Source of the DNA: an uncultured Planktomarina sp.
GTDB taxonomy: Bacteria; Pseudomonadota; Alphaproteobacteria; Rhodobacterales; Rhodobacteraceae
Reading direction: 5' to 3' (one strand)
Length of the DNA stretch: 64,000 bases
Assembly: GCF_951543265.1 (NCBI RefSeq)
Contig: NZ_CATOCO010000004.1
The stretch's first letter is position 1. Every line of letters begins with the position of its first letter. This document shows, in pieces, positions 1 to 20,118 of the stretch. Below the pieces are notes generated by a model, which saw only the letters and a list, made by a program, of their open reading frames with translations, searched no databases and had not been told where the DNA came from. The translations under genes were made by a program, and so were the position numbers.

Positions 1-1411
1 CATCCGCTGCATAAATATATGCGTTCAGTTCATCATTTATACGGGTTTGCGTGTGAGATAGAAATTGTTCGCGGGTAAAGTCGGGCGATGCACCCTCAAC
101 GTCCATACCCATTATATTAGACACAGATGTTTCCTGCAGTATATCAATTTCGATTTTATTTTGAAGGCCTTGCAGCGACCCATCAGCACCGAGCTTAAAC
201 AAATCAAGCGTTAATTTATCGTCAACATTCTGATAAATTTGAATTTTCTTATCATCTCCATAAGCTTCATTAATTGAACGTTCAACCTCAGCGGCAAGTT
301 GTTCAGCGTTGTAAAGGCCAGGTCGGACATCAATAGATACTGGGGCATCACTGTCATCAACATTTACAGTCAGAAAGTCTTTTCCCCAGAAAATATCACT
401 GTCACTTTTACCGCCCTCACGGGTTGCCTTGAACAGTAACGGATCGGTCACAATCTCAACCAGCTTGTCTCCCTCTTCACCAAAGTCAAACGCACTTTGC
501 TCGCCGCGAAGGGTCGCAGGTTGAGAATCAACCTGTTGCTTGAGATCATCCAATTTATAAAGTGGGGATCCTTTCCCCTCTAGAAAGTAGTTGTCATCAG
601 GCACGGCTGTCGTTTGATTACCGAAGCGATCGATGAACAGCTGTTTTTCACTATCATCAACAGCCTTCACCAAATCAGGTCCGATAATCGTGTCATTAAT
701 AACAAGTCGCGTGTCATATTTGTTTGTAGGATCGTCGCCAGAAGCGTTCTGGGTCTTAATAAAATAAATTGTCGCAATCGTTGGATTACCAAGGTCATCA
801 AAAATAGTAATGGATGTGGAATTTGTATAACTATTTGAATCGTTCTGATCAAATGTGTAACCGTCCGCAAATTGTTCTAACTGTGTAACAACAGCCGCAT
901 CAGCTGGAACGTTGACGCCCAGATCAATTGTTCCCGTAGCCTTCGGCTCACCCGACGTGACCGGAAGCTGCAAAGGCACCGCGCTGTCGAGGTCTTTCGC
1001 TGTAACCGAACCGTCAAGGTTAACCGGATAAGTCATTAGGTACTGACCCGCGCTATCAACAACATAACGGTCGTTATCCACGTTGAACGAACCGTTCCGT
1101 GTGTAAACAGTTTGAGTTGAAGTCAGTGAGGGCTTGAGGGCAAAAAAGCCTTGTCCAGATACAGCAAGGTCAAGCGCGTTCAACGACGAGGCAATGTTGC
1201 CTTGGGTAAACTGCTGCTTCACGCCCTTCAAGATAGTACCAGAACCAATCGAAGAGGATGCGTTTTGGAGTGGCGATGTCGCAAAAATATCGCCAAATTC
1301 TGCCCTGCTTCGTTTAAACCCCGTGGTCCCAACGTTCGCAATGTTATTCGAAGTAGACGCGATCTCAGCTTGTGCACCATTGAGGCCGGTCAAAGCGGTA
1401 TAGAATGACAT
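1..1411 (-). CDS. flgE: flagellar hook protein FlgE, N-terminal >=470 aa (C-terminus runs off the left edge)
   Basis: Absent from the ORF track because there is no stop in the window. My translation from ATG 1411 gives MSFYTALTGLNGAQAEIASTSNNIANVGTTGFKRSRAEF..., the conserved axial-protein N-terminus. The frame is open where spot-checked at both ends. It follows flgB-flgC-flgD. Confidence 0.8.
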   Translation of the reverse strand, partial: MSFYTALTGLNGAQAEIASTSNNIANVGTTGFKRSRAEFGDIFATSPLQNASSSIGSGTILKGVKQQFTQGNIASSLNALDLAVSGQGFFALKPSLTSTQTVYTRNGSFNVDNDRYVVDSAGQYLMTYPVNLDGSVTAKDLDSAVPLQLPVTSGEPKATGTIDLGVNVPADAAVVTQLEQFADGYTFDQNDSNSYTNSTSITIFDDLGNPTIATIYFIKTQNASGDDPTNKYDTRLVINDTIIGPDLVKAVDDSEKQLFIDRFGNQTTAVPDDNYFLEGKGSPLYKLDDLKQQVDSQPATLRGEQSAFDFGEEGDKLVEIVTDPLLFKATREGGKSDSDIFWGKDFLTVNVDDSDAPVSIDVRPGLYNAEQLAAEVERSINEAYGDDKKIQIYQNVDDKLTLDLFKLGADGSLQGLQNKIEIDILQETSVSNIMGMDVEGASPDFTREQFLSHTQTRINDELNAYIYAAD

Positions 1412-1476
1412 GTCTTAACCTTTCGTATTTTATCATGTGGCCCAATGGCCCAAACTTTTATCTGACGTTCACAAGA

Positions 1477-2178
1477 TTAACGAATGCGACTAACGCTACT
1501 TGCACTAATCGTGCCATAATCCTGGACATCAAGGGTCGCAGTTTCACTCGCATCACCAAAGGAAGAGGCAGACAGCACTTTAGCATAAACTGATGGGCCT
1601 ATACTCTCCATGCCTTTGCCGGTGTTTGCAGATATATCTACCTTAATTTTTCGGTCCGATTCACGTACTGCAATTGGAATGTTAGTCCAATTGAAACCGG
1701 TAAGGCCGGTACCTTGCGGACCAAGATCTTCGCTGTGCAGCAATTCACCACTTACCGCATCGGTAAATGACACACGCGTCGCACTCGCAGCTTGAGGAAG
1801 TTCAAAAACTCCATGGATTTCACCATTGTCATCTGGTCGAGCCATTGAACCAGGCACAAGAACAGAATGCCCCAATAAAGTCGACGCCGTCGCAATACGA
1901 GCTTGCTTCATGTCCGCTGAAAGCGATTCTAAGTTTTTATTAATTTGCTCAATACCAGACACTGTCGAAAACTGAGCCATCTGCGCAATAAAGTCACCGT
2001 TCTCCATGGGTGCAAACGGATCCTGATTTTGAAGCTGCGCTGTCATCAACTGTAAAAAATCATCTTGGCCAAGCTTATCACTTGAGCCTCGTTCGTCGGC
2101 ACTTTTGTTTGTATTAATTCCAAGCTTATCAAAAATAGCTTGCTGTGCCGAGGCACTGGCTGAATCTACATTACTCAT
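1477..2178 (-). CDS. flgD: flagellar hook assembly/capping protein FlgD
   Basis: Contains DDFLQLMTAQLQNQDPFAPMENGDFIAQMAQFSTVSG, the FlgD signature region. Lies between flgC and flgE. Confidence 0.9.
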   Translation of the reverse strand: MSNVDSASASAQQAIFDKLGINTNKSADERGSSDKLGQDDFLQLMTAQLQNQDPFAPMENGDFIAQMAQFSTVSGIEQINKNLESLSADMKQARIATASTLLGHSVLVPGSMARPDDNGEIHGVFELPQAASATRVSFTDAVSGELLHSEDLGPQGTGLTGFNWTNIPIAVRESDRKIKVDISANTGKGMESIGPSVYAKVLSASSFGDASETATLDVQDYGTISASSVSRIR

Positions 2179-2193
2179 GATTTTTCCTTCTAC

Positions 2194-2610
2194 CTAGCGG
2201 CCCATATTTACGGTGCGCATCATCAGAGAGCGCAGCGTGGAGACGACTTCTAAATTATTCTGATACTGACGGGAGGCCTCGAGCATCTCGACCATTTCTT
2301 CTTCAACATTCACCGCGGATCCCCAAACGTAGCCAGCTGCGTCAGCTTTGGGATGCTGCGGAAGGTGAACCCGGTTTGGCTCCAAATTTGACGGTACAAT
2401 CCCACGGACGTTGACTGTTGCTAATCCTGAGGTCTGGGCGTGCGAAGCATACTCCGTCTCGAACAAGGGCTTGATCGCAACATACGCTTCCTCCTTACTG
2501 TCGGCAAAGCTTCTTGCATTAGCCAAGTTACTGGCCACAGTATTAAGACGCGTCATTTGAGCAGACATTGCGCGACCTGAGATATCAAAAATGTTTTGAA
2601 TTCCCGACAT
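2194..2610 (-). CDS. flgC: flagellar basal-body rod protein FlgC
   Basis: N-terminal SGRAMSAQMTRLNTVASNLANA and C-terminal SRQYQNNLEVVSTLRSLMMRT rod-protein motifs. 138 aa. Confidence 0.92.
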   Translation of the reverse strand: MSGIQNIFDISGRAMSAQMTRLNTVASNLANARSFADSKEEAYVAIKPLFETEYASHAQTSGLATVNVRGIVPSNLEPNRVHLPQHPKADAAGYVWGSAVNVEEEMVEMLEASRQYQNNLEVVSTLRSLMMRTVNMGR

Positions 2611-2611
2611 T

Positions 2612-2998
2612 TTATTCTCCCTTGATTGCGGACATCAGGCCCGAAATTTTACGGTTCAGAAGAGTAAGAGAGCTTTGGTATCTGACAACATTTTCAGAGA
2701 ATTCCATTTGCTCGACCGCTAATTCCACCGTATTTCCGTCCAAAGATGGGTTTATGGGGGTGCGGTATAGCAAACCACCACCTGTCGAATTTCCGGCCTG
2801 CGCTATATGCCTATTATTTGATGTGGAGATTAGACCACTCGGCATTACCGCGGCTAAAGATGCTTCAAAATCAACATCCCTGGCTTTAAAATGAGGTGTT
2901 GCTGCGTTTGCTATATTTGACGCCAGGATATTATTGCGCTTTGATCGCAGTGTTAATGCGTCATCATGTATACCAAAATGGTCACGAATACTGTTCAT
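2612..2998 (-). CDS. flgB: flagellar basal-body rod protein FlgB
   Basis: Contains [25 protein letters not shown]. 128 aa. First gene of flgBCDE and 1 nt from flgC. Confidence 0.9.
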
Positions 2999-3040
2999 AC
3001 CTGTCTCGCTTCATCAAATTTAAGGGAAAGTCCCTCATCT

Positions 3041-3056
3041 TGGAGCGTTAATTGCA
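3041..3056 (+). promoter_or_regulatory. candidate sigma54 promoter for the 3091-4007 operon
   Basis: The plus strand reads TGGAGC-gttaa-TTGCA, with GG and GC at the correct 10-nt spacing. The -12 element is about 35 nt upstream of ATG 3091. It shares the TTGCAA palindrome with the flgB promoter. Confidence 0.5.
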
Positions 3057-3068
3057 AGTTGAGTGCCA
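3053..3068 (-). promoter_or_regulatory. sigma54 (-24/-12) promoter for flgBCDE
   Basis: The minus strand reads TGGCAC-tcaac-TTGCA, an exact match to TGGCAC-N5-TTGCW. The -12 element is about 55 nt upstream of the flgB ATG (2998). Confidence 0.8.
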
Positions 3069-3090
3069 AACGGAACTGCGAAAGAAAAAA

Positions 3091-3654
3091 ATGTTAAAAC
3101 CGTACAAATTGCTCCAAAATAATGATGGCACCAGTCAAAAGCTGTCTGCCAATTTATTGCGTATGAGAATGAAAATGTTAAAATCGGTTCAAGATGAAAC
3201 GCTTGATGACGCATTATCATTATTAAGAAGCCGCCATGGCGCCGAAAAAGACGTTAATATGCGATTGGCATCCATGGCTGCCCAAACTTGGATAATTAGG
3301 CAAAAATTTCTTGGTATAGGATCAAACCAACCAACATCAGTTAAAGAGTACATAACGGAATTAGCACCAAAAAAAGACAAGTTAGCTGCCATTAGGGTAA
3401 AGCCATCAGATGATGTGGCTGGAGTAACTGATGACGCGGTCACCATAAGCAGGTGGCAAAAAGTTAAGATACTTAAAGAGACAGAAGTAAACGGCATGCA
3501 ATTTTTTGAAAACACGACAATCAATGTAAGCAAGGATGATGCCGACAAGCTGATCACCGCCAAGAAGGCTATACTAGCTGACGATGGCACGCCGGACGAC
3601 GCGCCAGAAAAATCTACGCCACAGAAGGCGAAAACAAGTAAGGCTAAATCATGA
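3091..3654 (+). CDS. hypothetical protein, no family recognised (soluble, Lys-rich C-terminal tail)
   Basis: ORF track 3052..3654. I moved the start to ATG 3091 (MLKPYKLLQ...) because 3052-3068 is occupied by the sigma54 promoters. ATGA overlap with the next ORF. Confidence 0.55.
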   Translation: MLKPYKLLQNNDGTSQKLSANLLRMRMKMLKSVQDETLDDALSLLRSRHGAEKDVNMRLASMAAQTWIIRQKFLGIGSNQPTSVKEYITELAPKKDKLAAIRVKPSDDVAGVTDDAVTISRWQKVKILKETEVNGMQFFENTTINVSKDDADKLITAKKAILADDGTPDDAPEKSTPQKAKTSKAKS

Positions 3655-4007
3655 TGAAGTGGGCAGTATGCGGGATTTTAGCGATCGGACTCTTGGCTAT
3701 GATCTCATTAGGGAATTTAGGATCATTCAAAAGGTTCGAACATCGTACAATAACTTGCATGAACCAAATGATTGGGCCGTTTGAGCTGGTAGTGAATAAG
3801 ATAAAAATTGGAGAATTTGCTCAGCTGATCCAGCCTCAAGGCGAGGAGGCCTTGGAGATAACAGGTGTTTCTGAAGGTGCTATCATCGCTGAAGCTGGTG
3901 ATCGAAAACTACGTTTTACAATAGACTTTGAAGGCGCAAAGGTTTTGGTTCAGGAAAATTTAAAACTAAGGAGCTCGACGTGTAAAACAACTGGTTTTTC
4001 AATGTAA
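3651..4007 (+). CDS. hypothetical small exported/membrane-anchored protein
   Basis: N-terminal hydrophobic segment MMKWAVCGILAIGLLAMISLG. Start overlaps the stop of the upstream ORF (ATGA), which suggests translational coupling. Confidence 0.5.
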   Translation: MMKWAVCGILAIGLLAMISLGNLGSFKRFEHRTITCMNQMIGPFELVVNKIKIGEFAQLIQPQGEEALEITGVSEGAIIAEAGDRKLRFTIDFEGAKVLVQENLKLRSSTCKTTGFSM

Positions 4008-4015
4008 CTGCTTTA

Positions 4016-4744
4016 TTACTCAGCGACCCCACCTAAAAAATCTGCCATCCCATCACGTAAATTCCCTATAGCTGATTTCTTAATTTGAGATACGCGACCA
4101 GTTGTGACCCCTAGGATTTCAGCAATTTCATAAACGTTTAGTTCTTCAACGTAATACAACTGCATTACGAGAGCCTCGCGTTCCGAAAGCTTTGTCAATT
4201 GATCACGCAACCCACGCTGCATTTCTTGTTTACTTAGCAACTCTTCGGGATTCGAATCTTTAGACACAAACCAAACGGAATGGGCATCATGCATTTCATC
4301 AATGGATTGATGCAAGTTAGCCTCGAACGCTTGCCTCCACTTTCTTAATTCTTCAAATGTAATATTCAGCGTCTGAGAAACTTCTTCGTCAGTCGGATAG
4401 CGTTGCAACTTTTGCTCTAGGCCCAAAATAGTTTGATCAACTTTTTGCTTCATCGCAATCGTCGTACGACAAAGGTTTGAACTCCGGCGAAGGTGATCAA
4501 CGATTGAACCGCGAATACGGATTTTTGCATAACTACTGAATGTCACACCAGGTTTTTTAACGTATTTTTGGCTCGCATCGATCAGGCCTATGTACCCGAC
4601 TTGCACCAAATCATCGACTTCTACAGCACCTTTGACACGGCCGTAAAAATAGTAAGCAATTCTACGAACCGTCTGAAGTTCAGATGCAATTAAATCCTCA
4701 GGCCTGGGTTTTTGTTCCTGATAGTGCCCTGTATTTACAGTCAT
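4016..4744 (-). CDS. fliA: flagellar RNA polymerase sigma factor FliA (sigma28)
   Basis: Sigma70-family regions: DLVQVGYIGLIDASQKY, IRIRGSIVDHLRR, and a C-terminal HTH EIAEILGVTTGRVSQIKKSA. Lies downstream of flhF-flhG. Confidence 0.9.
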   Translation of the reverse strand: MTVNTGHYQEQKPRPEDLIASELQTVRRIAYYFYGRVKGAVEVDDLVQVGYIGLIDASQKYVKKPGVTFSSYAKIRIRGSIVDHLRRSSNLCRTTIAMKQKVDQTILGLEQKLQRYPTDEEVSQTLNITFEELRKWRQAFEANLHQSIDEMHDAHSVWFVSKDSNPEELLSKQEMQRGLRDQLTKLSEREALVMQLYYVEELNVYEIAEILGVTTGRVSQIKKSAIGNLRDGMADFLGGVAE

Positions 4745-5547
4745 ACTATTTCTTTCGATACGGAATTATTACCAAAAAAGCGAATACCATCATATGTATT
4801 CATAGGACACTTGAGTATCTTTTGCGACAGTGACTTAAAAGCGAGCAACTCTTTCTCAGGGGTGTTGGAATTTTTAGCTAATAATGGCTTGCGCTGCACA
4901 ACAGACTGACGCATTGGTGCGGAAAAAGGTACATGACCAACAAATGTAAGATTTACATCTAAAAATCTCATAGCAATATCTCGGAATTTTTCAAAGCTTT
5001 TGAGAGCCTCCGCCCCATCTTTCGCCATATTAATTACGATAGAGAAATTCTGGAGCTTATGTTCAAAATGAGCAGCCTTTATAACGGCGTATGCATCCAT
5101 GAAGCTTGTTGGCTCCGCAACCACGACAACCACAACCCGCTGGGATGCAGCGACAAAGGCAAGCGCGCTGTCGCTTGCACCTGCTGGCACATCAGTGATC
5201 AAAATATCCGTTTTATCAGCGATTGTATCTACATTTCGAATTAATTGATAACGTGCCGCAGAGTCGATATTCATCATTTCAACCAGCCCGCTGCCACCAG
5301 CTAGCAGCTTCACTCCGTCAGGCCCCGTTTCAACGATATCTTCGAGTGTCGAACCTCCCGACAACGCATCATAAAGAGTTTTTTTGGCGTTCTTACCCAT
5401 CAAGATATGAGAGTTCGCAAGCCCAAAATCAGCGTCAAAAAGACAAACACGATGCCCAAGTCGTGCAAACATGATAGCCAGGTTGACAGCTATACATGTT
5501 TTCCCAACGCCGCCTTTCCCGCTGGCTATTGTGATTGAATTGGTCAT
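4741..5547 (-). CDS. flhG: MinD/ParA-type flagellar number regulator FlhG (FleN)
   Basis: Deviant Walker A ASGKGGVGKTCIAVNLA. 4-nt overlaps with flhF and fliA. Confidence 0.88.
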   Translation of the reverse strand: MTNSITIASGKGGVGKTCIAVNLAIMFARLGHRVCLFDADFGLANSHILMGKNAKKTLYDALSGGSTLEDIVETGPDGVKLLAGGSGLVEMMNIDSAARYQLIRNVDTIADKTDILITDVPAGASDSALAFVAASQRVVVVVVAEPTSFMDAYAVIKAAHFEHKLQNFSIVINMAKDGAEALKSFEKFRDIAMRFLDVNLTFVGHVPFSAPMRQSVVQRKPLLAKNSNTPEKELLAFKSLSQKILKCPMNTYDGIRFFGNNSVSKEIV

Positions 5548-6869
5548 GATCCATAATCCAATTTTATTGCGCCTTCCTCTTTTGAGACGTCTGTAAAGTA
5601 CCCTTGCAAATATTGTTCCATAATAGCTGTAGAAGCCTTCACGAGGTTGCCCTCAAGATCGCACGTCCCCGCAAACCAGCCCACTTTTGCAGAGCTTGTC
5701 AACAGTTGTGAAATCTCAGGTACCGAACATTCACATTCATCCAGCTTGGTCATTACAACTTCAACGATCAAATCGTCTGTCTTAATCAACTCATTCTCAA
5801 TGCGCTTAGGTGTCAGCCCGCTTGGAAGTGCCACAACAATATGCACGCGCTGGTTTTGAAAGTGCTCTTGAAGTTGTGGCCATATTTGAATCGCATTTTC
5901 TGTGGTGCATGCCACATCGATAATGTGCAGTTTATCTTTACCAATTGGGGTCCACATATCCTGCTGATCGATCAGCCAATTATTCATAGGTAGGCTCAAC
6001 TGTTGGCAGTAATGGTTTAAAAGCCCACTTTGTAGCGATGCCACGCCATCCAGACTGACCAATTCAATCTGCCGATCTCCTATCATATCTCCCAGTAAGG
6101 TTGCAAATTTAGCGGCCAAAGTGGTTTTGCCTGCACCAGAAGGGCCCATAATAACAATCACGTCTGCATTAATGGTTTTTTGTAATTCACTGGATACAAC
6201 TTGATCTGCCAGATGTCGTATCAGATTAGATTGAACGACTGGATGCCCATTTTTTGTGCAATTTAAAATAGCGGCGTCGACGTGTACTCCCTCAAACCCC
6301 AAATCAACCATGTTTTGATACTTAAAGCCGTCAATCGTAGGCGCAAGGCCTTTAACCACGGGCGCTGTTTTCTGGACTAGATCAAGCATGCTCTCAATCC
6401 GCGCAAGGCGCGTCTCTATGCTATTGCTATCAACTTCCTCTAATTGGACAGTGCTACTGAGATTTAGAGACGGTTCCACGCGACGCACGGCACTCTTCAA
6501 AATCAGTGCCGGCATTTTCTCGACATTCGGAGCTAGCCCTTTATTGTTTTGAGAATTTTTTAATCCACCTTCAACTGAAAACAGTTTAGGTTGCTCAGTC
6601 TGATAAGCTTGGAGGTTAGTGTCTACAATAGGCGCCTGTAGCCGTTTACTCGGTGCAAACTGTTTTTCAAATTCCTCTTCAAAAACCGTCTGAACAGCAT
6701 TTGGCCTGCGTGGAATAGACGTCATAGGGTCAATCGTTGCCTTAATCTGAACCAAACCGTCGAACTGGGACGTTGATAGGATATAGGCATCCGATCCAAG
6801 CTGGCGAATGACTTCATCCATAGCCATGGCGCTATCTGGCGCTGTAACAGTTATTGTGGGCATATTCAT
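5544..6869 (-). CDS. flhF: flagellar biosynthesis SRP-type GTPase FlhF
   Basis: C-terminal G domain with IMGPSGAGKTTLAAKFA and MTKLDE. Lies between flhA and flhG. Confidence 0.88.
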   Translation of the reverse strand: MNMPTITVTAPDSAMAMDEVIRQLGSDAYILSTSQFDGLVQIKATIDPMTSIPRRPNAVQTVFEEEFEKQFAPSKRLQAPIVDTNLQAYQTEQPKLFSVEGGLKNSQNNKGLAPNVEKMPALILKSAVRRVEPSLNLSSTVQLEEVDSNSIETRLARIESMLDLVQKTAPVVKGLAPTIDGFKYQNMVDLGFEGVHVDAAILNCTKNGHPVVQSNLIRHLADQVVSSELQKTINADVIVIMGPSGAGKTTLAAKFATLLGDMIGDRQIELVSLDGVASLQSGLLNHYCQQLSLPMNNWLIDQQDMWTPIGKDKLHIIDVACTTENAIQIWPQLQEHFQNQRVHIVVALPSGLTPKRIENELIKTDDLIVEVVMTKLDECECSVPEISQLLTSSAKVGWFAGTCDLEGNLVKASTAIMEQYLQGYFTDVSKEEGAIKLDYGS

Positions 6870-6874
6870 TCCCC

Positions 6875-9181: not shown

Positions 9182-9197
9182 AGCAAAAGTCGTGCCA
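9182..9197 (-). promoter_or_regulatory. sigma54 promoter for flhA-flhF-flhG-fliA
   Basis: The minus strand reads TGGCAC-gactt-TTGCT, an exact consensus match. It lies about 145 nt upstream of the flhA ATG (9037). Confidence 0.75.
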
Positions 9198-11808: not shown

Positions 11809-12108
11809 ATGGTTGACTCAATTAAACATAACGTAAGGCAGATGCTTGCACCAGCAGCTCAAGAGGCGAAGGCTTCAACGGCTCGGAACAATGATGCTGC
11901 CGTGAAAATGTCCCCGAATGTATCGGGTGGTACAGATGAAATAAGTGTATCAATGAAGGCGTCAGTTTCATCTTTGGCGGAAAAACCTCCAGTTGATATC
12001 GAAGTCGTAAATAAGATAAAGCAAGCGATTTCAGATGGTAAGTATCCGATTAATCTTGATCTTGTATCCGAGCGTCTAATGGAGAGTTATCTGGAAATGC
12101 AGGGTTAA
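11809..12108 (+). CDS. flgM: anti-sigma28 factor FlgM
   Basis: 99 aa. C-terminal VDIEVVNKIKQAISDGKYPINLDLVSERLME matches the FlgM C-terminal sigma28-binding region. Lies after flgA. Confidence 0.8.
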   Translation: MVDSIKHNVRQMLAPAAQEAKASTARNNDAAVKMSPNVSGGTDEISVSMKASVSSLAEKPPVDIEVVNKIKQAISDGKYPINLDLVSERLMESYLEMQG

Positions 12109-12126: not shown

Positions 12127-12420
12127 ATGTTGATCAAAATGAATCTTGAAAAATCATTAGATCATCTTACAAACCTTATTTCAGAGTGTTGGGAAAACAG
12201 GAAAAACCCAGCGCTCTTGGACGCGTACAGAATAAGCATTCAGAACTCGGTATCAACGGTTATAAAGTTTTCTGAAACTAGTAAGGGTGCATTTCCACTC
12301 GACGAGCATTCGCTCAAAAAAATAAATGATGTTTTGGATCTCATAGACAACCTGGAAAAAAATCTTAGACGTAAACACGGCGAATTAGATTATATAATTA
12401 ATAACGCGTTAAAAAAGTAA
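12127..12420 (+). CDS. small helical protein in the flgN position (possible FlgN-like chaperone)
   Basis: Positional evidence only: it lies directly after flgM. 97 aa, shorter than typical FlgN. No motif recognised. Confidence 0.35.
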   Translation: MLIKMNLEKSLDHLTNLISECWENRKNPALLDAYRISIQNSVSTVIKFSETSKGAFPLDEHSLKKINDVLDLIDNLEKNLRRKHGELDYIINNALKK

Positions 12421-12442: not shown

Positions 12443-12467
12443 AATATTACAATAGCAATACGACAAC

Positions 12468-13106
12468 TCAATCTGCAACGCTTGAAAAAGCTGAACCCTC
12501 AAATATCCCAATTGATTTATTTTGAGCAATGATCAAATCGGCTGCTTCTAAATAGTTTGCAATTTCATTACTTCCCTCAAAGCCGCCCTTAATCCCCAAG
12601 GCTTGAGCAATAGAGTACCAAATATATGACACTTCATAGTCCGGTATAGTCAGAAATTCTGATTGGATTCGAGCATATTTAATAATTGCACTCCGATCTC
12701 CATTAGACAATTGACTAGTCAGCCTATCGATAATGCGACTATAGTTCATCTCTATTTCTTCCTCTGGCAGGACTTTTGACAGTTGAGAAACTAGCGAGCT
12801 GGCTCTAAGTTCTCCCCCTAAATCAGAAAGTACGGCCCAGAAGTAAGCCTCAGAAAAATTTCTAGGCTGCCCCATTCCTGCCTTTATCAAAAGAGCAGCA
12901 TTAAATTGCGCGTCAGATACATCATCATTTGCAAGCGACTTAAAAATACTTAAAGCTTTTCGAAAATCCTTATCATTAACTGCCTCTACCGCCTCGTCAA
13001 AACGCAAATTCGTGTCATCGTAATGGGTGTCTGCTATAGCGTAGGCCGCCTGAAAAAATACAGAAATAGCCACACAAAATGATAAGATAAAATGTGCTGC
13101 CTTCAT
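12468..13106 (-). CDS. secreted Sel1/TPR-like repeat protein
   Basis: Signal peptide MKAAHFILSFCVAISVFFQAAYA. Repeated A-x-x-W/F...A-x-x-G Sel1-like units (EAYFWAVLSDLGG, SYIWYSIAQALGIKGG). 212 aa. Confidence 0.6.
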   Translation of the reverse strand: MKAAHFILSFCVAISVFFQAAYAIADTHYDDTNLRFDEAVEAVNDKDFRKALSIFKSLANDDVSDAQFNAALLIKAGMGQPRNFSEAYFWAVLSDLGGELRASSLVSQLSKVLPEEEIEMNYSRIIDRLTSQLSNGDRSAIIKYARIQSEFLTIPDYEVSYIWYSIAQALGIKGGFEGSNEIANYLEAADLIIAQNKSIGIFEGSAFSSVAD

Positions 13107-13492
13107 TTTCCTGCCTGCATAACCAACTGAAGATAGAATACTCGTGACTTAAATTTAGAACCATGTTGCCGCTCATAAACAACGAGCTTTGGCCTATTGG
13201 CCGTTGTTTTACTGACTTCTATAAACATAGTTGAAGGCAAATGAACGCCTCCGTCTGCCAAAGCTTTCAATGGGTCTACAGTAAATTCCCGTTCAAACTG
13301 ATCATCTAACCATGCCCGTGCAAGCGCTCTACCAAGAATATCCGGAAGCTGATTGCGAACCTCTTCGCGATTGGAAAGGACGACATCCCCATGTGCCGAT
13401 GTCGACTTGGATTTTTTCGGAGCATCGCGCAAAGCAACAGCCGTTGACGGCGCAGGCACCTGAACCAATGCTGTTGAATCATTACGTTTCAT
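13103..13492 (-). CDS. small protein with nitrile-hydratase-alpha/NHLP-like domain
   Basis: ARAWLDDQFEREFTVDPLKALADGGVHLPSTMFIEV matches the NHLP / NHase-alpha N-terminal pattern (AW-D--F---L--DP--AL-e-Gv-lP). ATGA overlap with the Sel1 gene. Confidence 0.5.
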   Translation of the reverse strand: MKRNDSTALVQVPAPSTAVALRDAPKKSKSTSAHGDVVLSNREEVRNQLPDILGRALARAWLDDQFEREFTVDPLKALADGGVHLPSTMFIEVSKTTANRPKLVVYERQHGSKFKSRVFYLQLVMQAGK

Positions 13493-13672
13493 AAGGCCCT
13501 CTCTGCATTTTTTGCTCTCAAAACATTTTGAATTTATATCATAGTTGAAACAAGTATAAAGTTAAATCTCTTTAGCATTATGACATTAATGCGTTAAAAG
13601 CTGTTTTGCATTGCATTTGATATCTTCCTTAAATACCTTCAAACTAATCAAGCGGCTTGAAAAGTTGAAAAA

Positions 13673-14782
13673 TTGACACCATCTTCAAAACGTCCAGCAC
13701 AATCCATAATCATCGGCAGCTCAAAGCTAACAATGGATATGAAGAATCTTATAGAGATTGTTGCCCCCTCAATCGGACCAGTTTTAGTGTACGGGCCAAC
13801 GGGTGCTGGCAAAGAACTTGTTGCGGAAGAAATTCATACGCATAGTGGGCGAAAGGGTAAACTTGTTGCCGTAAACTGCGCTGCTATTCCAAGTGAGCTT
13901 ATAGAATCTGAATTGTTTGGATACGAAAAAGGTGCATTCACCGGTGCCGATAAGCAGCGTCTTGGACGCTTTGAAATATCACATAAAGGAACACTATTTT
14001 TAGATGAAATCGGAGATATGCCACTATCTTTACAATCCAAGTTGCTTCGTGTGCTGGAAAATCATTCCATACAACGGGTTGGTGGCAAAGATGATGTTGC
14101 CCTAGACCTAAGGATTGTTTGCGCAACACATAAGAATTTACAAACTATGGTTGATTCAGGTACCTTCCGTGCGGACTTGTTTTATCGGTTAAATGTATTT
14201 CCAATTACGGTACCGTCACTCAAGGAACGTGGTGATGATATCCTTGAGCTACTGGCGATGCTTCTCGAAAAACGGCGAGGCCAAACGCCCAATGTGCCCC
14301 TTCCAACGTTCTCAAAAAATGGCACAACTGAGCTATTAGCTTATGATTGGCCAGGAAATGTTCGAGAGTTACGAAATGTTGTTGAGCGAGCATATATCCT
14401 CTTTTCAGGCAGGGAAATTTCTGGACAAAATGTGCGTGAAAATCTTTTAACTCTGCAAATGCCAAGTTCAAATTCCGAAGAAGAGAATAATGCGATTTGG
14501 GACGCAACGAGTGATTTAGTTGGTCGTTCCAAAGACAACATAGAACATGCCGTTTCAGGCAGGCCACCGCAGCCACAAGATTACCAAGTATGGTTTCAAC
14601 ATCATAATAACATTGATTTACGCGGACATTTGCAGGATATTGAGGTTGTTTTGATTGAAGCTGCTTTAGAAGTAACAAACGGCATGGTCAGTGCTGCTTC
14701 CGATCGCCTTAATATTGGGCGTACAACACTGATCGAGAAGATGAAAAAACTTATGATTTCAAAAGACAAAACGTTAATCTGA
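13673..14782 (+). CDS. sigma54-dependent transcriptional activator (AAA+ and Fis-type HTH, no receiver domain), FleQ/FlrA-like
   Basis: Walker A GPTGAGKE, the sigma54-contact motif ESELFGYEKGAFTGA, and a C-terminal HTH AASDRLNIGRTTLIEKMKK. Only about 35 aa precede the AAA+ core. TTG start at 13673; alternative ATG at 13733. Confidence 0.88.
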   Translation: MTPSSKRPAQSIIIGSSKLTMDMKNLIEIVAPSIGPVLVYGPTGAGKELVAEEIHTHSGRKGKLVAVNCAAIPSELIESELFGYEKGAFTGADKQRLGRFEISHKGTLFLDEIGDMPLSLQSKLLRVLENHSIQRVGGKDDVALDLRIVCATHKNLQTMVDSGTFRADLFYRLNVFPITVPSLKERGDDILELLAMLLEKRRGQTPNVPLPTFSKNGTTELLAYDWPGNVRELRNVVERAYILFSGREISGQNVRENLLTLQMPSSNSEEENNAIWDATSDLVGRSKDNIEHAVSGRPPQPQDYQVWFQHHNNIDLRGHLQDIEVVLIEAALEVTNGMVSAASDRLNIGRTTLIEKMKKLMISKDKTLI

Positions 14783-16411
14783 TTTTGCCCAAGCTTTCAT
14801 AATTGTTGTAATGTAATCACCTGTTGATTTAAGCTTTGTGACAGCCTGTTCCATTTTTGCAAATTTTCTAAGCTCCCGCGCTTCTATAATTTCAGCTTTA
14901 TCGTCAGCTTCAGTTAGTTTATCCTTATAGTCAGCGGCTCGAGCTTTTAAGTATGTTTCTTTCGTTGTGATATCACCACGCACAGATGTAATAGTCTCCA
15001 AATAATCTGACAATTTATTGACAAGCGATCGGCCAATATAAACGTCACTAGCCAAATTTCCATCTGCGACGGAAAGTGTGCCTGCGTTTATGATCATGCC
15101 ATTGAAATTTCCATTGAGCTTATAAAACTCTCGATCACCATTAGCATTCGTTCTGGAAGACAATGCCTGGCCGTTTATAGTGGCACTATCACTGGCCGCG
15201 TCATATAAAAATCCTTGGACACCTGTCAGCGGTTTAGCACTAGATCCAAAGCTGACCTGTAGGTTATCAAGCTGCATAGAGTTTGAAGAATTATAAATAG
15301 CGTTAAGCTTTTCTGGTGACTTGATCAGTACACTTTCAAGCTTCAAAGTATCTATACTTAGCGTGCCGTCTAGATTGGTTTTCACACCAAGATCTGTCAA
15401 ATAAAACGGCTCAGCACCAAAGCCTGTCAATGGGGACGTCGTAATGGAACCCAATTCACGCCCAATCGACGCAATTAATGCATCTCCCGCGAGCGCACCA
15501 CCATCAGCGCCATTCAGTCCCCTAGCGGATGCTTCCTTAAGATAGCTACGCATGGTGTTTATTTGATCAACCAGTGCCTGTAATTCGCCCGTTGCACCAG
15601 CAGTGTCAGTTGCCACAGACAAATCCACATTCGACGCAGAAACTGCATTAAGGGTCAAAGTGGCCCCACTAACCAAATCAGTAATCGTATTTTTTTCGCG
15701 CAAAACTGTAATGCCATTTATTAAAATTTCAGCATCTTGCGCTGCTGCAATTTCATTGCTTCCATCTGTAGTATCAAATGTCGTTGGACCACCCTCAGAA
15801 GCCGTAATGCGAAGGGAATTTTTTTCTCCGAATTCAGACATAAGACTTAAAGAAAAGGTTCCGTCGCCTTTGTTAACGATCTGCGCCGTTATACCACTCA
15901 AAGCATTCATTTTAGTAGCAAAATCTTTTATTGACACACCCCCACTCGCGACAGTGACAGTTTGGGCCGTAACGCTACTGTTTGCTGAAAATATGTCGTC
16001 GGCTGACCATGAGCCAGCTTCCACCGTCAAAGTACCTGCTCCAACCGTCGCATCAACGGACGCAAACCCACTAAATTCTAAAACCTGGCGGCTAGCCAAT
16101 CTATTGATCTTGATCGATGTATTCCCAACGGAAAGCGCATTAGCGTCACTGACTTCCATCGACACAGCAGTGCTAGAGCTTTTTACTTGGAATACGCCAG
16201 TTTCCCCCGCGACGCTTAGAGCACCTTCCAATATTGCAGCCTTAACGCGAAACTTTGCAACTTCGGAAATCGCTAAATCATTGACACCCACGTTTTTGTT
16301 GATAAGTGCTTTTACTGGCTCGATTTCTGCCGCAACTATACTGTCCACCAACTGAGTGATGTTCAGTCCAGAGCCCTTACTGTTCAAAGTACTCAGATAA
16401 TCGACAGCCAT
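14774..16411 (-). CDS. fliD: flagellar filament cap protein FliD
   Basis: N-terminal SKGSGLNITQLVDSIVAAEIEPVKAL and C-terminal coiled-coil ...RKFAKMEQAVTKLKSTGDYI. 545 aa. Confidence 0.88.
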   Translation of the reverse strand: MAVDYLSTLNSKGSGLNITQLVDSIVAAEIEPVKALINKNVGVNDLAISEVAKFRVKAAILEGALSVAGETGVFQVKSSSTAVSMEVSDANALSVGNTSIKINRLASRQVLEFSGFASVDATVGAGTLTVEAGSWSADDIFSANSSVTAQTVTVASGGVSIKDFATKMNALSGITAQIVNKGDGTFSLSLMSEFGEKNSLRITASEGGPTTFDTTDGSNEIAAAQDAEILINGITVLREKNTITDLVSGATLTLNAVSASNVDLSVATDTAGATGELQALVDQINTMRSYLKEASARGLNGADGGALAGDALIASIGRELGSITTSPLTGFGAEPFYLTDLGVKTNLDGTLSIDTLKLESVLIKSPEKLNAIYNSSNSMQLDNLQVSFGSSAKPLTGVQGFLYDAASDSATINGQALSSRTNANGDREFYKLNGNFNGMIINAGTLSVADGNLASDVYIGRSLVNKLSDYLETITSVRGDITTKETYLKARAADYKDKLTEADDKAEIIEARELRKFAKMEQAVTKLKSTGDYITTIMKAWAKSD

Positions 16412-16484
16412 TTATCGGCGCCTTTCATTGTTTTTCTACTATTCAAACGACCGTATTTCAAAAAAATTGAGTCCTGCCGCTTGG

Positions 16485-17699
16485 TTAGTAACTTATCTCA
16501 ATTTCAATTCGACGGTTTTGATCCCGTCCTTCGGCTGTAGCGTTGTCAGCAATTGGCTTCGTTTCACCCAAGCTCACTGCTTTCAACTTTCCCGCTGGCA
16601 CCAAGCCCGTGGCTTGCATTGATTGCACTACACTTGCTGCACGTCCTGCAGCCAAGTCCCAGTTATCACGGTAGAGACCACCGGAAATCGGTACATCATC
16701 AGTGTGTCCCGTCACAGTAACTTCGCTGTCACCTGTCATAGACGCATAGGCAACTCTGCTTAGAATATCACGAGCCGCTCCAGTCAAATCTGCTGACCCA
16801 GAAGGGAATGCTCCACCAGAACCCACTGTTACAAAGACCGACCCATCTCGACGCTCTACGGTCACAAGGCCTTGCGCAATTTCGTCTTGCAGCGCAACAG
16901 CCAACTGCATTTCAGTCAAATTTGCATTTGCGAGCACCGCTTGATCTCTTATTTCTTCCTGTTCATTTTTTTCTGAAGGTCCGAAGCCTTGGTTATCTGC
17001 ATTTACCGCCATAGCAAGCTGTTTAAGTTGCTGCTCGAGCCCACCTAATAGGATTTCGCTATCGGCCTGTCCGCTTGCATTCCGAGCCTCAGCCAGTGCG
17101 GCTAAGGTTTCTTCTAGCAAGCTTGGTAAATCTTTTTGAGTCTCGTCCGGCGATGGGAAATTGATCACAACATTCTCTCCGATCATTTCGACCGACACAT
17201 CCCCATCCTGGATTGCAGCTTGCAATGCGGCGCCAAGTTCGGCTGCGTCCATTTGAGCCGCTGTCAGCGTCCCATCCGTGTCGCCCGCTTGGCCACTACC
17301 TTGGTCCTGTCCTAAATTGTCTTGTTGATTGCCGTCAACAGAATCTTCTTTTTTGCTATCAATCTCAATCTCTGGTTTTTGCATTTCCGTCGTTTGCTGT
17401 GTCATTTCTTGCGTCACAGATGGGCTTGGTGAGGGACTAAATTCGAGAGAAATAACAGTAGTACCCTTTGGTTGTTCAACAACAGGAACTACTTTTTGTA
17501 CACCAAATGCATTTTTAAGTGACCCAGAGATCATCTTAAATTTTGGCGTGTTGAATTCTGCGAACGACAAAATCAAAACAAAAAATGCCATCAACAACGT
17601 CGCCATATCGGCAAATGTCGCCATCCATGCAGGAGCACCCACAGGCGGGCACTTCGGACATTCTTCTTCGTCGTCTTCGACTTCTACTACTTCAGCCAT
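16485..17699 (-). CDS. motB: flagellar stator protein MotB/PomB with OmpA-like peptidoglycan-binding domain
   Basis: N-terminal APAWMATFADMATLLMAFFVLIL (plug/TM with the conserved Asp). C-terminal VTGHTDDVPI...YRDNWDLAAGRAASVV...NRRIEIEI. Confidence 0.88.
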   Translation of the reverse strand: MAEVVEVEDDEEECPKCPPVGAPAWMATFADMATLLMAFFVLILSFAEFNTPKFKMISGSLKNAFGVQKVVPVVEQPKGTTVISLEFSPSPSPSVTQEMTQQTTEMQKPEIEIDSKKEDSVDGNQQDNLGQDQGSGQAGDTDGTLTAAQMDAAELGAALQAAIQDGDVSVEMIGENVVINFPSPDETQKDLPSLLEETLAALAEARNASGQADSEILLGGLEQQLKQLAMAVNADNQGFGPSEKNEQEEIRDQAVLANANLTEMQLAVALQDEIAQGLVTVERRDGSVFVTVGSGGAFPSGSADLTGAARDILSRVAYASMTGDSEVTVTGHTDDVPISGGLYRDNWDLAAGRAASVVQSMQATGLVPAGKLKAVSLGETKPIADNATAEGRDQNRRIEIEISY

Positions 17700-17735
17700 G
17701 ACAGGCTCCTAAAAGGTGCATTTATTTTTACAGAC

Positions 17736-18497
17736 TTAAGCGGCCTCAAGTTTAGCTTGCAATTTAGGTGGCAAATTAGCAGCCATTTGATCTTGAATTG
17801 TACGTGGGCTTTCGCTTCTAGCAATCCCACTCAACCCCGAGATAACCATGTCACGGTATGTAGATTCGTGCAGAGTATATCCTTCAAGTTTCGTTAACAT
17901 TGGGCTAAAAAGAACGTTAGCAATGAAAGCTCCGTAAAGGGTAGTCAGCAAGGCAACAGCCATAGCAGGGCCAATAGCCTTCGGATCAGCCATATTCCCA
18001 AGCATCAAAACAAGACCAACGAGCGTTCCAATCATGCCCATCGCAGGAGCGATATCAATCCAGGCTTTGACCACACCTTGATTAGCCTCATGGCGGAGTT
18101 TCATCGATTTAACTTCCTGCTTCATTTGACGGACAAGCGTACCTTCATCCGCCCCATCAACCAGCATTTGAAGACCTTTTTCAAAGAACTTATCTGGAAC
18201 AGCCTGACCTTCCAGAGCCATCATGCCATCTTTACGGGCGATTGCGGCTAACTCAATCATACGTTCGATCATTACGTCTGGCTTTTTTACTGGAGGTAGA
18301 AAGGCTTTTGACATCGCACCAAAGCTACCTAAAAAGGTACCGAGGGGCGCAGTATACATGACGGCAAAAAATGTTCCGCCAAACACAATTAAAATAGACG
18401 CAGTATCAATGAACGCACCGAGTCCACCGCCTGAAAGCATAGCGCCAACAATCATACCAACAGCGCCAATTAGGCCAATGAGAGAAGCAAGATCCAT
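17736..18497 (-). CDS. motA: flagellar stator protein MotA/PomA
   Basis: 253 aa, four-TM MotA/TolQ/ExbB family (MDLASLIGLIGAVGMIVGAML..., ...GPAMAVALLTTLYGAFIAN). Lies directly upstream of motB. Confidence 0.9.
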   Translation of the reverse strand: MDLASLIGLIGAVGMIVGAMLSGGGLGAFIDTASILIVFGGTFFAVMYTAPLGTFLGSFGAMSKAFLPPVKKPDVMIERMIELAAIARKDGMMALEGQAVPDKFFEKGLQMLVDGADEGTLVRQMKQEVKSMKLRHEANQGVVKAWIDIAPAMGMIGTLVGLVLMLGNMADPKAIGPAMAVALLTTLYGAFIANVLFSPMLTKLEGYTLHESTYRDMVISGLSGIARSESPRTIQDQMAANLPPKLQAKLEAA

Positions 18498-18655
18498 TCT
18501 TAGTACCTTTTTGTCGAATTCACCTCACCACCTTCAATTTCCGTACCAAGTTTAAAACTGCTACAAAATTTATTATTGTGGTAAGCTGAACAATAATTTC
18601 AAGGATGGTATACATATTGCGAGGGTGAAGACAATTGCTACAAACGCGAGGGAAA

Positions 18656-19123
18656 ATGTTAAAGGTACTTATTTTTATTCTGGGGCTCAGTCCTGCTCAC
18701 GCTCTTAAGGCTCAGTTCTATACGCAAGGGAACTTCGTTACGGACCTGTCACAGGGTATAATCTGGCTGCGGTGCTCATTAGGTCAACGCTGGGACCCCA
18801 CAACCAAACGGTGCTCAGGCAATGCTAAGCGTCTCAATTTTGAGGAAATTGATCAAGCTATTTCTCAAGCGAATGAACAACTGGGTGGAACATGGCGACT
18901 TCCAACATTAGAAGAATTGGAACATATTGTTTGCCAAGAGTGCGGTCCCCCAAAAATTGATTCTGGTTCTTTTCCAAACACTCAATCAGAACCTTATTGG
19001 ACCTCTGACGTCAATTGGATGTCCTCTCGCAACCGTTGGAGTGTTAATTTCATGACAGGCCTTAAGTACGGGCGATTTTTTCCCCAACAACAACTTGCAG
19101 TCCGTTTAGTCTCGGACAAATAA
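18656..19123 (+). CDS. DUF1566 (Lcl C-terminal-like) domain protein, secreted
   Basis: GIIWLRCSLGQRW...GGTWRLPTLEELEHIV...EPYWTSD...RWSVNFMTG fits the DUF1566 pattern. Start moved to ATG 18656 (MLKVLIFILGLSPAHA signal peptide) behind GAGGGA. Confidence 0.6.
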   Translation: MLKVLIFILGLSPAHALKAQFYTQGNFVTDLSQGIIWLRCSLGQRWDPTTKRCSGNAKRLNFEEIDQAISQANEQLGGTWRLPTLEELEHIVCQECGPPKIDSGSFPNTQSEPYWTSDVNWMSSRNRWSVNFMTGLKYGRFFPQQQLAVRLVSDK

Positions 19124-19180
19124 CTTTGCCCATTACGGATCATAGTATAGATGCAACATAATAAAAATTGAGTTAACGTT

Positions 19181-19870
19181 TTGAAGCGAAGATATTTTTT
19201 ATCCGCCATAAGCGCCAGCGCTATTTTTCAAGCTCAAATTTCACCCGCTGAAAACGGAGGTATCAAAGGAACTAGTTTATTTTTTAAATCACCAAAGCAG
19301 CCTTTGATTGATATTCAAGCAAGCACAGGTTTTTTTAATCACTTCGAACCCGATGAAATGCCAGAACACCTTGGAACAAAAGTTTTACGGACCCCACAAG
19401 TGTCACTTGAAGAAAATGCAAGTCTGACAATGCGCAACACAAACACAGACGAATACATAAGCATAAGACCCATGACTTCATTGGGCTTGGATCATGGTGA
19501 ACTTAAGCGCGCAAATTATTTCATGCGAGACTGGCGGCTTAACGAAGTTAAAAAAATTGATCCAAATATTATTTTGCGGTTACTAGAGATTCAGCAAGGC
19601 GCTCGAAGGAATGGATTCAATACTGACATTCAGTTTCTATCAGGGTATCGCAGCGCTGAAACCAATAAAATTCTGAGACAAAAAACTAATGGAGTCGCAC
19701 CTAATTCTTTGCATATTCAAGCCAAAGCTATTGATTTCTTTTTACCCAAGGTGCCCGTCAAGGAGTCTATCAGGCTTGCCAAAGCGGTCGGAATTAGCGG
19801 CGTTGGTGGATATGTTAATTTTGTGCACATTGACAGTGGCCGTCGGCGATTGTGGGGTACTGCAACGTGA
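19181..19870 (+). CDS. Tat-exported DUF882 / peptidase M15A family protein (YcbK/MepK-like)
   Basis: TTG start followed by the twin-arginine motif KRRYFLSAISASA. C-terminal SGYRSAETN...NSLHIQAKAIDF...GGYVNFVHIDSG, a zinc-peptidase pattern of DUF882. Confidence 0.7.
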   Translation: MKRRYFLSAISASAIFQAQISPAENGGIKGTSLFFKSPKQPLIDIQASTGFFNHFEPDEMPEHLGTKVLRTPQVSLEENASLTMRNTNTDEYISIRPMTSLGLDHGELKRANYFMRDWRLNEVKKIDPNIILRLLEIQQGARRNGFNTDIQFLSGYRSAETNKILRQKTNGVAPNSLHIQAKAIDFFLPKVPVKESIRLAKAVGISGVGGYVNFVHIDSGRRRLWGTAT

Positions 19871-20118
19871 CGTCAGACATGCCTTTCCAGAATACAGGGT
19901 CGCGACAGACTGGCCCAGAGATAATATAATTATAAGCACATTAGAGCTATGATCATATGAAGTTTTAATGAAACTTTATGTATCTTTAGGTCTGAAAATT
20001 ACACTCAACTCAACCTATGTTTAACTCTTAATATGCAAGGAATTGCCATCTTAAATTTTGTAATGATGCACTAATTTTCCTCAGACACAGTTGTTGTGCG
20101 TGGTTAAAAGCAAGAAGC

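Follow-up and report, generated by a model that had tools for sequence, protein, structure and literature searches.

The stretch of DNA analysed here, referred to as the window, comprises 64 000 nucleotides of contig NZ_CATOCO010000004.1 (assembly GCF_951543265.1), assigned to an uncultured Planktomarina sp., and opens with a low-GC block of flagellar genes at positions 1–20118. The gene content, composition, border and relatives of this block lead us to propose, with a probability of roughly 0.8, that it is the right-hand 20 kb of a fla3/Fla1-type flagellar cluster of at least 38.6 kb in the chromosome of a Planktomarina-like roseobacter, and not a fresh gammaproteobacterial import.

Searches with Pfam and NCBIfam profiles confirmed the flagellar gene set (flg, flh, fli and mot genes, a sigma54 activator and a 253-residue MotA) reported in an initial annotation that had been made from the sequence alone. 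The genes and sites of the block are as follows.

2–1414, minus strand: flgE, encoding a giant hook protein; only its first 471 codons lie within the window, the left end of which truncates the gene (Pfam Flg_bb_rod, LlgE_F_G_D1, FlgE_D2)
1477–2178, minus strand: flgD, hook cap (Pfam FlgD, E = 4e-24)
2194–2610, minus strand: flgC, proximal rod (Pfam Flg_bbr_C, Flg_bb_rod)
2612–2998, minus strand: flgB, proximal rod (Pfam Flg_bb_rod; position ahead of flgC)
3052–4007, plus strand: two conserved genes with no assigned function, encoding 200 and 118 residues (no Pfam or NCBIfam match)
3054–3068, minus strand: sigma54-type promoter TGGCACTCAACTTGC, 56 nt upstream of the flgB start (exact consensus)
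4016–4744, minus strand: fliA, sigma28 (Pfam Sigma70 r2, r3 and r4; position after flhG)
4741–5547, minus strand: flhG (fleN), MinD/ParA-type ATPase (Pfam ParA, CbiA, AAA_31)
5544–6869, minus strand: flhF, divergent SRP-type GTPase (TIGR03499, 68.8 bits against a cut-off of 174; weak SRP54)
6875–9037, minus strand: flhA, export gate (Pfam FHIPEP, E = 1e-238)
9183–9197, minus strand: sigma54-type promoter TGGCACGACTTTTGC, 146 nt upstream of flhA (exact consensus)
9233, plus strand: near-consensus sigma54 site TGGCATGATTTCTGC facing flgP (near match)
9286–9882, plus strand: flgP-like LPP20 lipoprotein, basal disk (Pfam LPP20, 25.2 bits against a cut-off of 25.9)
9879–11033, plus strand: flgT-like, H-ring (Pfam FlgT_N, E = 7e-9)
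11033–11770, plus strand: flgA, P-ring chaperone (Pfam ChapFlgA, SAF)
11809–12108, plus strand: flgM, anti-sigma28 (Pfam FlgM)
12127–12420, plus strand: 97-residue helical protein (no family match; 35–38% identity in sister lineages)
12468–13106, minus strand: periplasmic Sel1-repeat protein of 212 residues with a signal peptide (best PDB match a Sel1-repeat protein, E = 1e-6)
13103–13492, minus strand: NHLP/nitrile-hydratase-alpha-like protein of 129 residues (weak TIGR03793 and PF02979)
13673–14782, plus strand: sigma54-dependent activator, FleQ-like, lacking a receiver domain (Sigma54_activat, E = 1e-65; AAA_lid_14; HTH_8)
14774–16411, minus strand: fliD, filament cap (Pfam FliD_C, FliD_N)
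16485–17699, minus strand: motB, 404 residues with a plug helix, a long acidic linker and an OmpA domain (Pfam MotB_plug, OmpA)
17736–18497, minus strand: motA, PomA-like stator subunit of 253 residues (Pfam MotA_ExbB)
18606: near-consensus sigma54 site facing the Lcl_C gene (near match)
18635–19123, plus strand: secreted Lcl_C/DUF1566 protein, divergent from motA (Pfam Lcl_C, E = 8e-22)
19181–19870, plus strand: DUF882/M15 peptidase, the last low-GC gene (Pfam Peptidase_M15_2)
19871–20127: right border, an AT-rich spacer up to the stop codon of the first flanking host gene (change point and ends of relatives' alignments)

Most of these are flagellar genes, with the order flhA–flhF–flhG–fliA among them; the last two, encoding the Lcl_C/DUF1566 protein and the DUF882 peptidase, are not classical flagellar genes, and the description of the block as a flagellar set needs to be qualified to that extent. 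The best NCBIfam model for MotA is PomA (271 bits, cut-off 341) and its best PDB match is Vibrio PomA (207 bits).

The block is sharply distinguished from the rest of the window by composition. GC content is 44.3% at 1–20118 compared with 52.4% at 20119–64000, and in 1 kb bins it is 38–48% throughout the block and 47–57% throughout the remainder of the window. The best single change point by maximum likelihood falls after base 20127 (log-likelihood ratio 185). Per-gene GC at third codon positions (GC3) is 0.401 ± 0.044 for 23 genes in the block and 0.539 ± 0.035 for 37 genes outside it (Mann–Whitney p = 1.3e-9), with 0.53 versus 0.59 at first positions and 0.40 versus 0.455 at second positions; the shift in base composition is greatest at synonymous sites. 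The GC-normalised tetranucleotide correlation with the outside reference is 0.74–0.84 for the four 5 kb bins of the block and 0.92–0.95 for the outside bins. The deviation from the host chromosome by which an island is recognized is thus seen in GC, GC3 and tetranucleotides alike. An AT-rich block within a higher-GC chromosome, with an abrupt switch near 19.9–20.1 kb, had been described in the initial annotation on the basis of spot counts; both points are borne out by the full profiles, which step and are not flat. Its placing of the island at 1–20118 is correct for the right edge; the block runs past the left end of the window, so that these positions delimit only part of it.

The compositional border coincides with the ends of the alignments to relatives, which stop at 20119 (L096), 20118 (L099) and 20126 (L101). 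A comparison of close relatives at the same locus, one of the checks suggested in the initial annotation, shows that contigs L101, L096–98 and L099–100 share the flank and lack the block at this junction. In L101, the flank of which matches over 12.4 kb at 97.0% identity, the stop codon of the flanking dehydrogenase gene is directly followed by ion-channel and methyltransferase genes with a GC content of 34–40% (L101 12458–15170). LacI, GST, a radical-SAM enzyme, DapF and ATP synthase F0 genes are found at the junction in L096–98 (flank ∼80% identical), and a Sel1 protein, a PAD_porph-family enzyme and a phage integrase in L099 (flank ∼76%). The right edge is therefore a synteny breakpoint with respect to close relatives, and the block is an island by composition and by synteny. 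The junction site behaves as a hotspot for AT-rich accessory DNA.

Contigs of the same species extend the low-GC flagellar region by at least 18.5 kb to the left of the window at 39–49% GC, giving the total of at least 38.6 kb. The genes met in this direction encode the rest of FlgE followed by FlgF, FlgG, FlgH, FlgI, FlgJ, FlgK, FlgL and an SLT-domain enzyme, and then a ClC channel, another rod-type protein, FliS and FliL (FliL in L122). The complete FlgE has 1263 residues (L012–L015 and L122; L122 2368–6159) and that of a sister lineage 1381–1386 (L103 17734–21894). Only ∼235 N-terminal and ∼190 C-terminal residues match solved FlgE chains; for the middle of ∼850 residues, no sequence match was found in the PDB, and self-BLAST revealed no internal repeat. 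Breaks in large assemblies seem to fall within flgE. FlgK is likewise giant (1414 residues), whereas FlgJ has 116 residues and consists of a Rod-binding domain only, a separate SLT-domain protein being encoded after flgL. The ClC-type chloride channel, which carries a CBS domain, lies inside the cluster between the SLT enzyme and the rod-type protein (L122 16388–18100).

A 2025 survey of 306 Rhodobacterales genomes distinguishes three types of flagellar cluster, fla1, fla2 and fla3, of which fla1 is ancestral and vertically inherited; fla2 and fla3 'spread via horizontal operon transfers' (PMC12363192). The fla3 type is defined there by RSP_0032–RSP_0083 of Cereibacter (Rhodobacter) sphaeroides 2.4.1, i.e. 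its Fla1 system, which earlier work traced to acquisition from a gammaproteobacterium in the distant past (PMC7277832). In Table S1 of the survey, Nereida ignava and Planktomarina temperata (both clade 4) are listed as carrying fla3 only and Lentibacter algarum, Planktotalea, Celeribacter marinus and Thalassobacter as fla3-positive; above the genus level, the fla3 phylogenies of the survey depart from the species tree (PMC12363192). The FlhA of the block is 90–91% identical to copies in metagenome-assembled genomes (MAGs) of Rhodobacteraceae, 86% to that of Celeribacter marinus and 74–75% to those of Seohaeicola and Roseicyclus, all of the closest named relatives being Rhodobacteraceae. A scan for MotA with one genome per GTDB species, in which the best 80 loci were considered, gave identities of 75–87% in Rhodobacterales (Lentibacter, Nereida, Sulfitobacter-like MAGs, Seohaeicola, Roseicyclus, Gemmobacter, Roseovarius, Yoonia, Marivita, Planktotalea and Thalassobacter), SAR116/Puniceispirillales and PS1/Parvibaculales. 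With 87% as the top MotA identity, the species of the window, or at least this contig, has no entry among those genomes. The genera matched by the FlhA and MotA searches are those scored as fla3-positive in the survey (PMC12363192, Table S1). Because the genera agree and the traits of Fla1 are shared, the block is filed here as a putative fla3-type cluster, the same type as C. sphaeroides Fla1; the initial annotation had drawn the same parallel (with fla1 of Rhodobacter sphaeroides), which these two lines of evidence support.

The traits in common with C. sphaeroides Fla1 include a sigma54 activator followed by FliA with FlgM, FlgT and FlgP, a giant FlgK (1414 residues here and 1363 there; PMC7277832) and a short single-domain FlgJ with a separate lytic transglycosylase (SltF). 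Both are chromosomal, with a scattered, horizontally spread distribution among roseobacters and a beta/gamma-like deep affinity. The two differ in that motAB lie outside the cluster in C. sphaeroides and inside it here, in that FlgE has 423 residues there and 1263 here, and in that the block has FlhF, FlhG and conserved Sel1-repeat and Lcl_C/DUF1566 proteins. In the stretch examined here, rpoN2, FleT and MotF were not seen (no MotF reference was compared), and the GC deficit against the host is unusually large. Nereida ignava (L050) and MAGs of Nereida, Lentibacter and Sulfitobacter (L052, L016 and L018) have a gene order identical to that of the block (Lcl_C / MotA MotB FliD / activator / NHLP-like, Sel1 / FlgM FlgA FlgT FlgP), with MotA 86–87%, MotB 76–79% and peripheral proteins 38–65% identical, but their clusters have a GC content of 50–57%, compared with 44% here, and the chromosomal neighbours differ in each. 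Sister copies share the gene order with 90–91% identity in FlhA and 91–93% in MotA, and FlhF and FlgT are 42–46% and 44–51% identical; FlhF thus diverges far beyond its neighbours. A further copy in the same family, on plasmid pOA238_118 of Octadecabacter arcticus 238 (NC_020909.1; L111), is 62% identical in FlhA and likewise has an LPP20 lipoprotein, FlgT_N, FlgA, FlgM, a SEL1-like protein and MotA/MotB, with sigma54 sites ahead of flhA and motA; it differs in being plasmid-borne and surrounded by insertion sequences (ISs), in carrying rpoN within the cluster and in its gene order. A CBS-domain protein is also encoded in this plasmid cluster.

At greater distance, tblastn searches against plasmids and chromids gave FlhA identities of 48% to Pseudomonas, Aeromonas and Sphingomonas, 45% to Ralstonia and Salmonella and 43% to Vibrio, compared with 35–37% to Azospirillum, Phyllobacterium and the plasmid-borne FlhA of Sulfitobacter CB2047 (35.5%, probably fla2-type). 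Judged by sequence identity, the cluster lineage appears to be nearer to beta/gamma systems than to native alphaproteobacterial ones. Representatives of FlhA clusters at 50% identity were rejected as evidence of deep origin, as they are ∼40% identical and come from mixed phyla (Nitrospira, Nitrospinae, Melainabacteria, Parvibaculum, Ferrimonas and E. coli). In architecture, the block resembles the polar systems of Vibrio and Pseudomonas in the control of flagellar number and placement by FlhF/FlhG, in the hierarchy of sigma54 followed by sigma28 and in the PomA-like stator A subunit, and that of Vibrio in the outer rings of FlgT and FlgP. It departs from them in its FlgJ, which lacks the muramidase domain of the bifunctional beta/gamma (Vibrio/Pseudomonas) protein, and in a 404-residue MotB with a long acidic linker; no FlrBC/FleSR pair was found and no MotY was seen in the region covered. 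Together with the FlhA identities of 43–48% and a MotA score under the PomA cut-off, these differences set the block apart from the Vibrio/Pseudomonas blueprint to which the initial annotation had assigned its gene content and order.

That annotation had favoured a gamma-type set acquired comparatively recently and not yet ameliorated. The presence of FlhF, FlhG, FliA, FlgM, FlgT, FlgP and a PomA-like MotA, the strong step in GC and GC3 and an FlhA nearer to gamma/beta than to alpha-native types would indeed fit a recent direct transfer of a Vibrio/Pseudomonas-type polar set from a gammaproteobacterium with the donor composition retained. We nevertheless consider this reading close to refuted. 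The best gamma/beta FlhA sequences are 43–48% identical, compared with 62–91% for dozens of alphaproteobacterial copies, so that no gammaproteobacterial FlhA lies near the latter; 79 of the best 80 MotA matches carry alphaproteobacterial or unspecific labels, a single MAG being labelled Gammaproteobacteria; FlgJ lacks the muramidase domain and the stretch seen has no FlrBC-type two-component pair; and strain-level diversity, described below, is higher in the block than in the flank. The gamma-type description stands for the architecture (FlhF/FlhG/FlgT/FlgP) and the deep FlhA affinity and fails for the close relatives, which are alphaproteobacterial. The close FlhA and MotA homologs (75–91% identical, mostly Rhodobacteraceae) group with the alphaproteobacteria by identity rather than by tree, an outcome that the initial annotation had itself named as refuting its proposal.

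Neither the recent date nor the lack of amelioration is upheld. In ten orthologous genes, GC3 ranges from 0.39 in the window to 0.69 in Seohaeicola and tracks host GC, indicating that this cluster type does ameliorate. GC3 of island and flank, respectively, is 0.39 and 0.54 in the window, 0.45 and 0.56 in the sister lineage L107, 0.49 and 0.58 in the Nereida MAG (L052), 0.49 and 0.57 in Nereida ignava (L050), 0.61 and 0.69 in the Lentibacter MAG (L016) and 0.67 and 0.69 in the Sulfitobacter-like MAG (L018). Related clusters elsewhere lie 2–12 points under their flanks, with a negative offset in five of seven cases, and none is as large as that in the window (−0.15), where the general trend towards a GC deficit reaches its extreme. 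Since this deficit recurs in related clusters of other hosts, low GC is a standing trait of the cluster and does not demonstrate that it arrived recently. Strains carrying this junction are 95.3–97.2% identical in the block and 98.0–98.5% in the flank, and 85–99% and 96–99%, respectively, at third codon positions. By gene, third-position identity is 85–86% for Lcl_C, 93% for the M15 peptidase, 92–99% for MotA and 87–100% for MotB, compared with 96–98% for the flanking dehydrogenase and 98.6% for the flanking methyltransferase. The MotB values are mosaic between contigs: third positions of motB are 100% identical in two contigs and 87% identical in another, while those of Lcl_C are 85–86% identical in all (16485–19870 compared with L112–L119), which suggests recombination between divergent island alleles within the population. 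The block holds older, recombined alleles compared with the flank. Its greater diversity argues against a recent arrival, as a recent sweep would give the opposite.

The explanation that we favour is that a cluster type of beta/gamma-like deep ancestry now circulates among marine Alphaproteobacteria and has been spread within the Rhodobacterales by horizontal operon transfer. Its site in this species would be specific to the lineage, immediately beyond the stop codon of a gene resembling dimethylglycine dehydrogenase, and its low GC would be an exaggerated form of the deficit seen in related clusters of most hosts examined. The donor would have been another marine alphaproteobacterium rather than a gammaproteobacterium, and the arrival not very recent. 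Vertical descent from a common ancestor of Nereida and Planktomarina, with rearrangement of the neighbouring genes and with the low GC as the outcome of evolutionary conditions peculiar to the locus (codon selection or biased gene conversion might, for instance, be weak in an accessory region that seldom recombines and is seldom expressed), is unlikely, if far from negligible. It is in keeping with the shared clade 4 and fla3-only status of P. temperata and Nereida ignava (PMC12363192, Table S1), the gene order shared with Nereida, an island GC3 that follows that of the host with its offset negative in most cases, the greater age of the block than the flank at synonymous sites and the ISs that L003 and L107 carry within or next to the cluster, a possible cause of rearrangement; yet the fla3 trees are incongruent with the species tree beyond the genus (PMC12363192), one copy lies on a plasmid, the AT-rich DNA found at the junction in the closest relative seen (flank identity 97%) is unrelated to the block, the GC3 offset is at its largest here and many proteins of the cluster are only 35–60% identical to those of the nearest other lineages. 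Mis-assembly or mis-binning, in which a low-GC flagellar contig had been joined to a roseobacter contig, is scarcely credible. The abruptness of the GC step and the position of the window's left end, within a long gene at which assemblies are prone to break, could be taken as signs of it, but the junction from the Lcl_C and M15 peptidase genes to the dehydrogenase gene is present at 95–100% identity in at least 15 metagenome contigs from independent projects and assemblers and is therefore not an assembly artefact.

Several observations weigh against horizontal acquisition of a fla3-type cluster from another marine alphaproteobacterium. No tRNA gene was found in the whole window, the genes scanned in and beside the block include neither an integrase nor a transposase, and no flanking repeat was seen in the window. 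The left border was not reached by the metagenome scan (+18.5 kb), which leaves a clean insertion unproven. The absence of the block from relatives of ∼80% identity is established for the junction only, not genome-wide; the sister islands (L102–L108) could not be linked to the flank-only contigs L096–L099, and L103 and L099, although from one sample, are separate contigs of unequal coverage. Membership of fla3 was assigned through the survey genera and common traits, without direct sequence comparison with C. sphaeroides. The fla3-positive P. temperata RCA23 is absent from the best 80 MotA and best 120 FlhA matches, which implies either that the host label is loose or that the P. temperata cluster is a different fla3 subtype. 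Finally, GC3 is lower in the window than in any other copy examined, a value that no donor in the sample accounts for and that could reflect fairly late acquisition from an AT-rich lineage outside the sample.

The cluster type itself and its movement among roseobacters are already known. What the present analysis adds is a copy from an uncultured, abundant lineage resembling Planktomarina, in which the right junction is mapped precisely and the GC deficit exceeds that of every other copy examined. Its main value is as a correction: the combination of a GC step with a gamma-looking gene set invites the reading of a fresh transfer between classes, whereas the nearest relatives are in the host's own family. 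Because other hosts show the deficit as well, the age of this element is poorly gauged by low GC alone. The standing GC3 deficit (2–15 points), the older mosaic alleles and the use of a different site in each genus raise the possibility, which we regard as tentative and on balance doubtful, that clusters of this type form a semi-autonomous module in pelagic alphaproteobacteria with unrecognised conserved motor parts; these would be the Lcl_C/DUF1566 protein, the Sel1-repeat protein and a hook protein of three times the normal size.

The Lcl_C/DUF1566 gene is divergent from and immediately upstream of motA in 74 of the 75 loci with enough upstream DNA (L016–L095), a pairing that spans Rhodobacterales, SAR116 and Parvibaculales. 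Its product, which has no match among PDB sequences, is a candidate stator-associated periplasmic component; a literature search for DUF1566 in connection with flagellar stators revealed no link, and one for Planktomarina flagella yielded nothing relevant. The adjacent M15 peptidase was considered as a conserved end of the island and rejected: the copy in L107 is 34% identical, and other genera have none beside Lcl_C. The Sel1-repeat protein is present in every Rhodobacterales cluster of this type examined (37–67% identity). It resembles Vibrio MotX in size, signal peptide and repeat type and may stand in for it; C. sphaeroides has no motX or motY homolog (C. sphaeroides review). Those who study the diversity of flagellar motors may find interest in the coupling of a DUF1566 gene to motAB, in the Sel1 protein and in the giant FlgE, which are more original leads than the cluster itself.

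The exact sigma54 consensus TGGCAC-N5-TTGC occurs twice in the window, where 0.38 occurrences are expected. The site ahead of flgB is also present in same-species contigs (L011, L013, L015 and L122), and an exact site is found at the same position relative to flhA in L102–104, in L108–110 and on the O. arcticus plasmid. Matches to the sigma28 consensus in the window were no more frequent than expected by chance and none was well placed; a GCCGATAA motif is located immediately ahead of the fliD start. The sigma54 activator, FliA and FlgM are all encoded in the block, as in the Fla1 type of C. sphaeroides, and a working model can be drawn by homology with the Fla1 hierarchy (PMC7277832). The receiver-less activator would act at the TGGCAC-N5-TTGC promoters ahead of flgBCDE..., of flhA–flhF–flhG–fliA and probably of flgP–T–A–M. 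FlgM would restrain FliA until the hook is complete, whereupon FliA would activate late-gene transcription. Flagellar placement and number would be governed by FlhF and FlhG, with one flagellum predicted at a polar or subpolar position; FlgT and FlgP would form the outer H-ring and basal disk, and the PomA-like MotA and 404-residue MotB would form the stator, the coupling ion of which is not readable from sequence.

Among the remaining genes of the block, the pair encoding 200 and 118 residues occupies the same place in sister lineages (53–57% identity), and the 118-residue protein (3651–4007) has one N-terminal hydrophobic segment in a hydrophobicity scan. The position of the 97-residue helical protein would suit FlgN, for which it is a candidate only. 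The 129-residue NHLP-like protein keeps its position in the cluster across genera (48–74% identity). The flgP ortholog on the O. arcticus plasmid is annotated as an LPP20-family lipoprotein and stands beside FlgT. For the FlgT-like protein of the block, no match was found among PDB sequences; the best solved matches of FlhA are two full-length chains of 692 and 702 residues. Metagenome gene callers place the start of the sigma54 activator at 13733.

The surroundings of related clusters vary by genus, with DnaE–HisS–HisG–NrdJ in the Nereida MAG and KefB-type and MetY-type genes in the Lentibacter MAG; in the sister lineage L107 an IS and ribose-transport genes lie beside the cluster, with the same seven-point GC step. 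The L107 element is at the island end (12536–13234), and in the same-species contig L003 an IS (HTH_Tnp_1 and rve; 16115–17262) replaces flgM and its neighbours. The elements around the O. arcticus plasmid copy belong to IS66, IS256, ISL3 and IS21.

Outside the block, the alphaproteobacterial markers noted in the initial annotation were confirmed (a CcrM-type methylase, DciA (DUF721) beside MutY, the Rieske protein/cytochrome b/cytochrome c1 set and LolA–FtsK). The host is a member of the Rhodobacteraceae, and its flanking dehydrogenase matches, at 100% identity, an NCBI entry from 'uncultured Planktomarina sp.'. The part of the chromosome adjoining the junction is

20119–28237, minus strand: host flank with two DAO+GCV_T dehydrogenases, a homocysteine S-methyltransferase, two LysE exporters and an HTH-cupin regulator (Pfam)

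and the genes of the right flank are ordered LolA, SLT, GGT, thiolase, HTH-cupin, two LysE, dehydrogenase, methyltransferase and dehydrogenase. Positions 20119–26414 form a compact one-carbon/glycine-betaine demethylation cluster with paralogous dimethylglycine/sarcosine-type dehydrogenases, the order of which is kept in all of the relatives seen.

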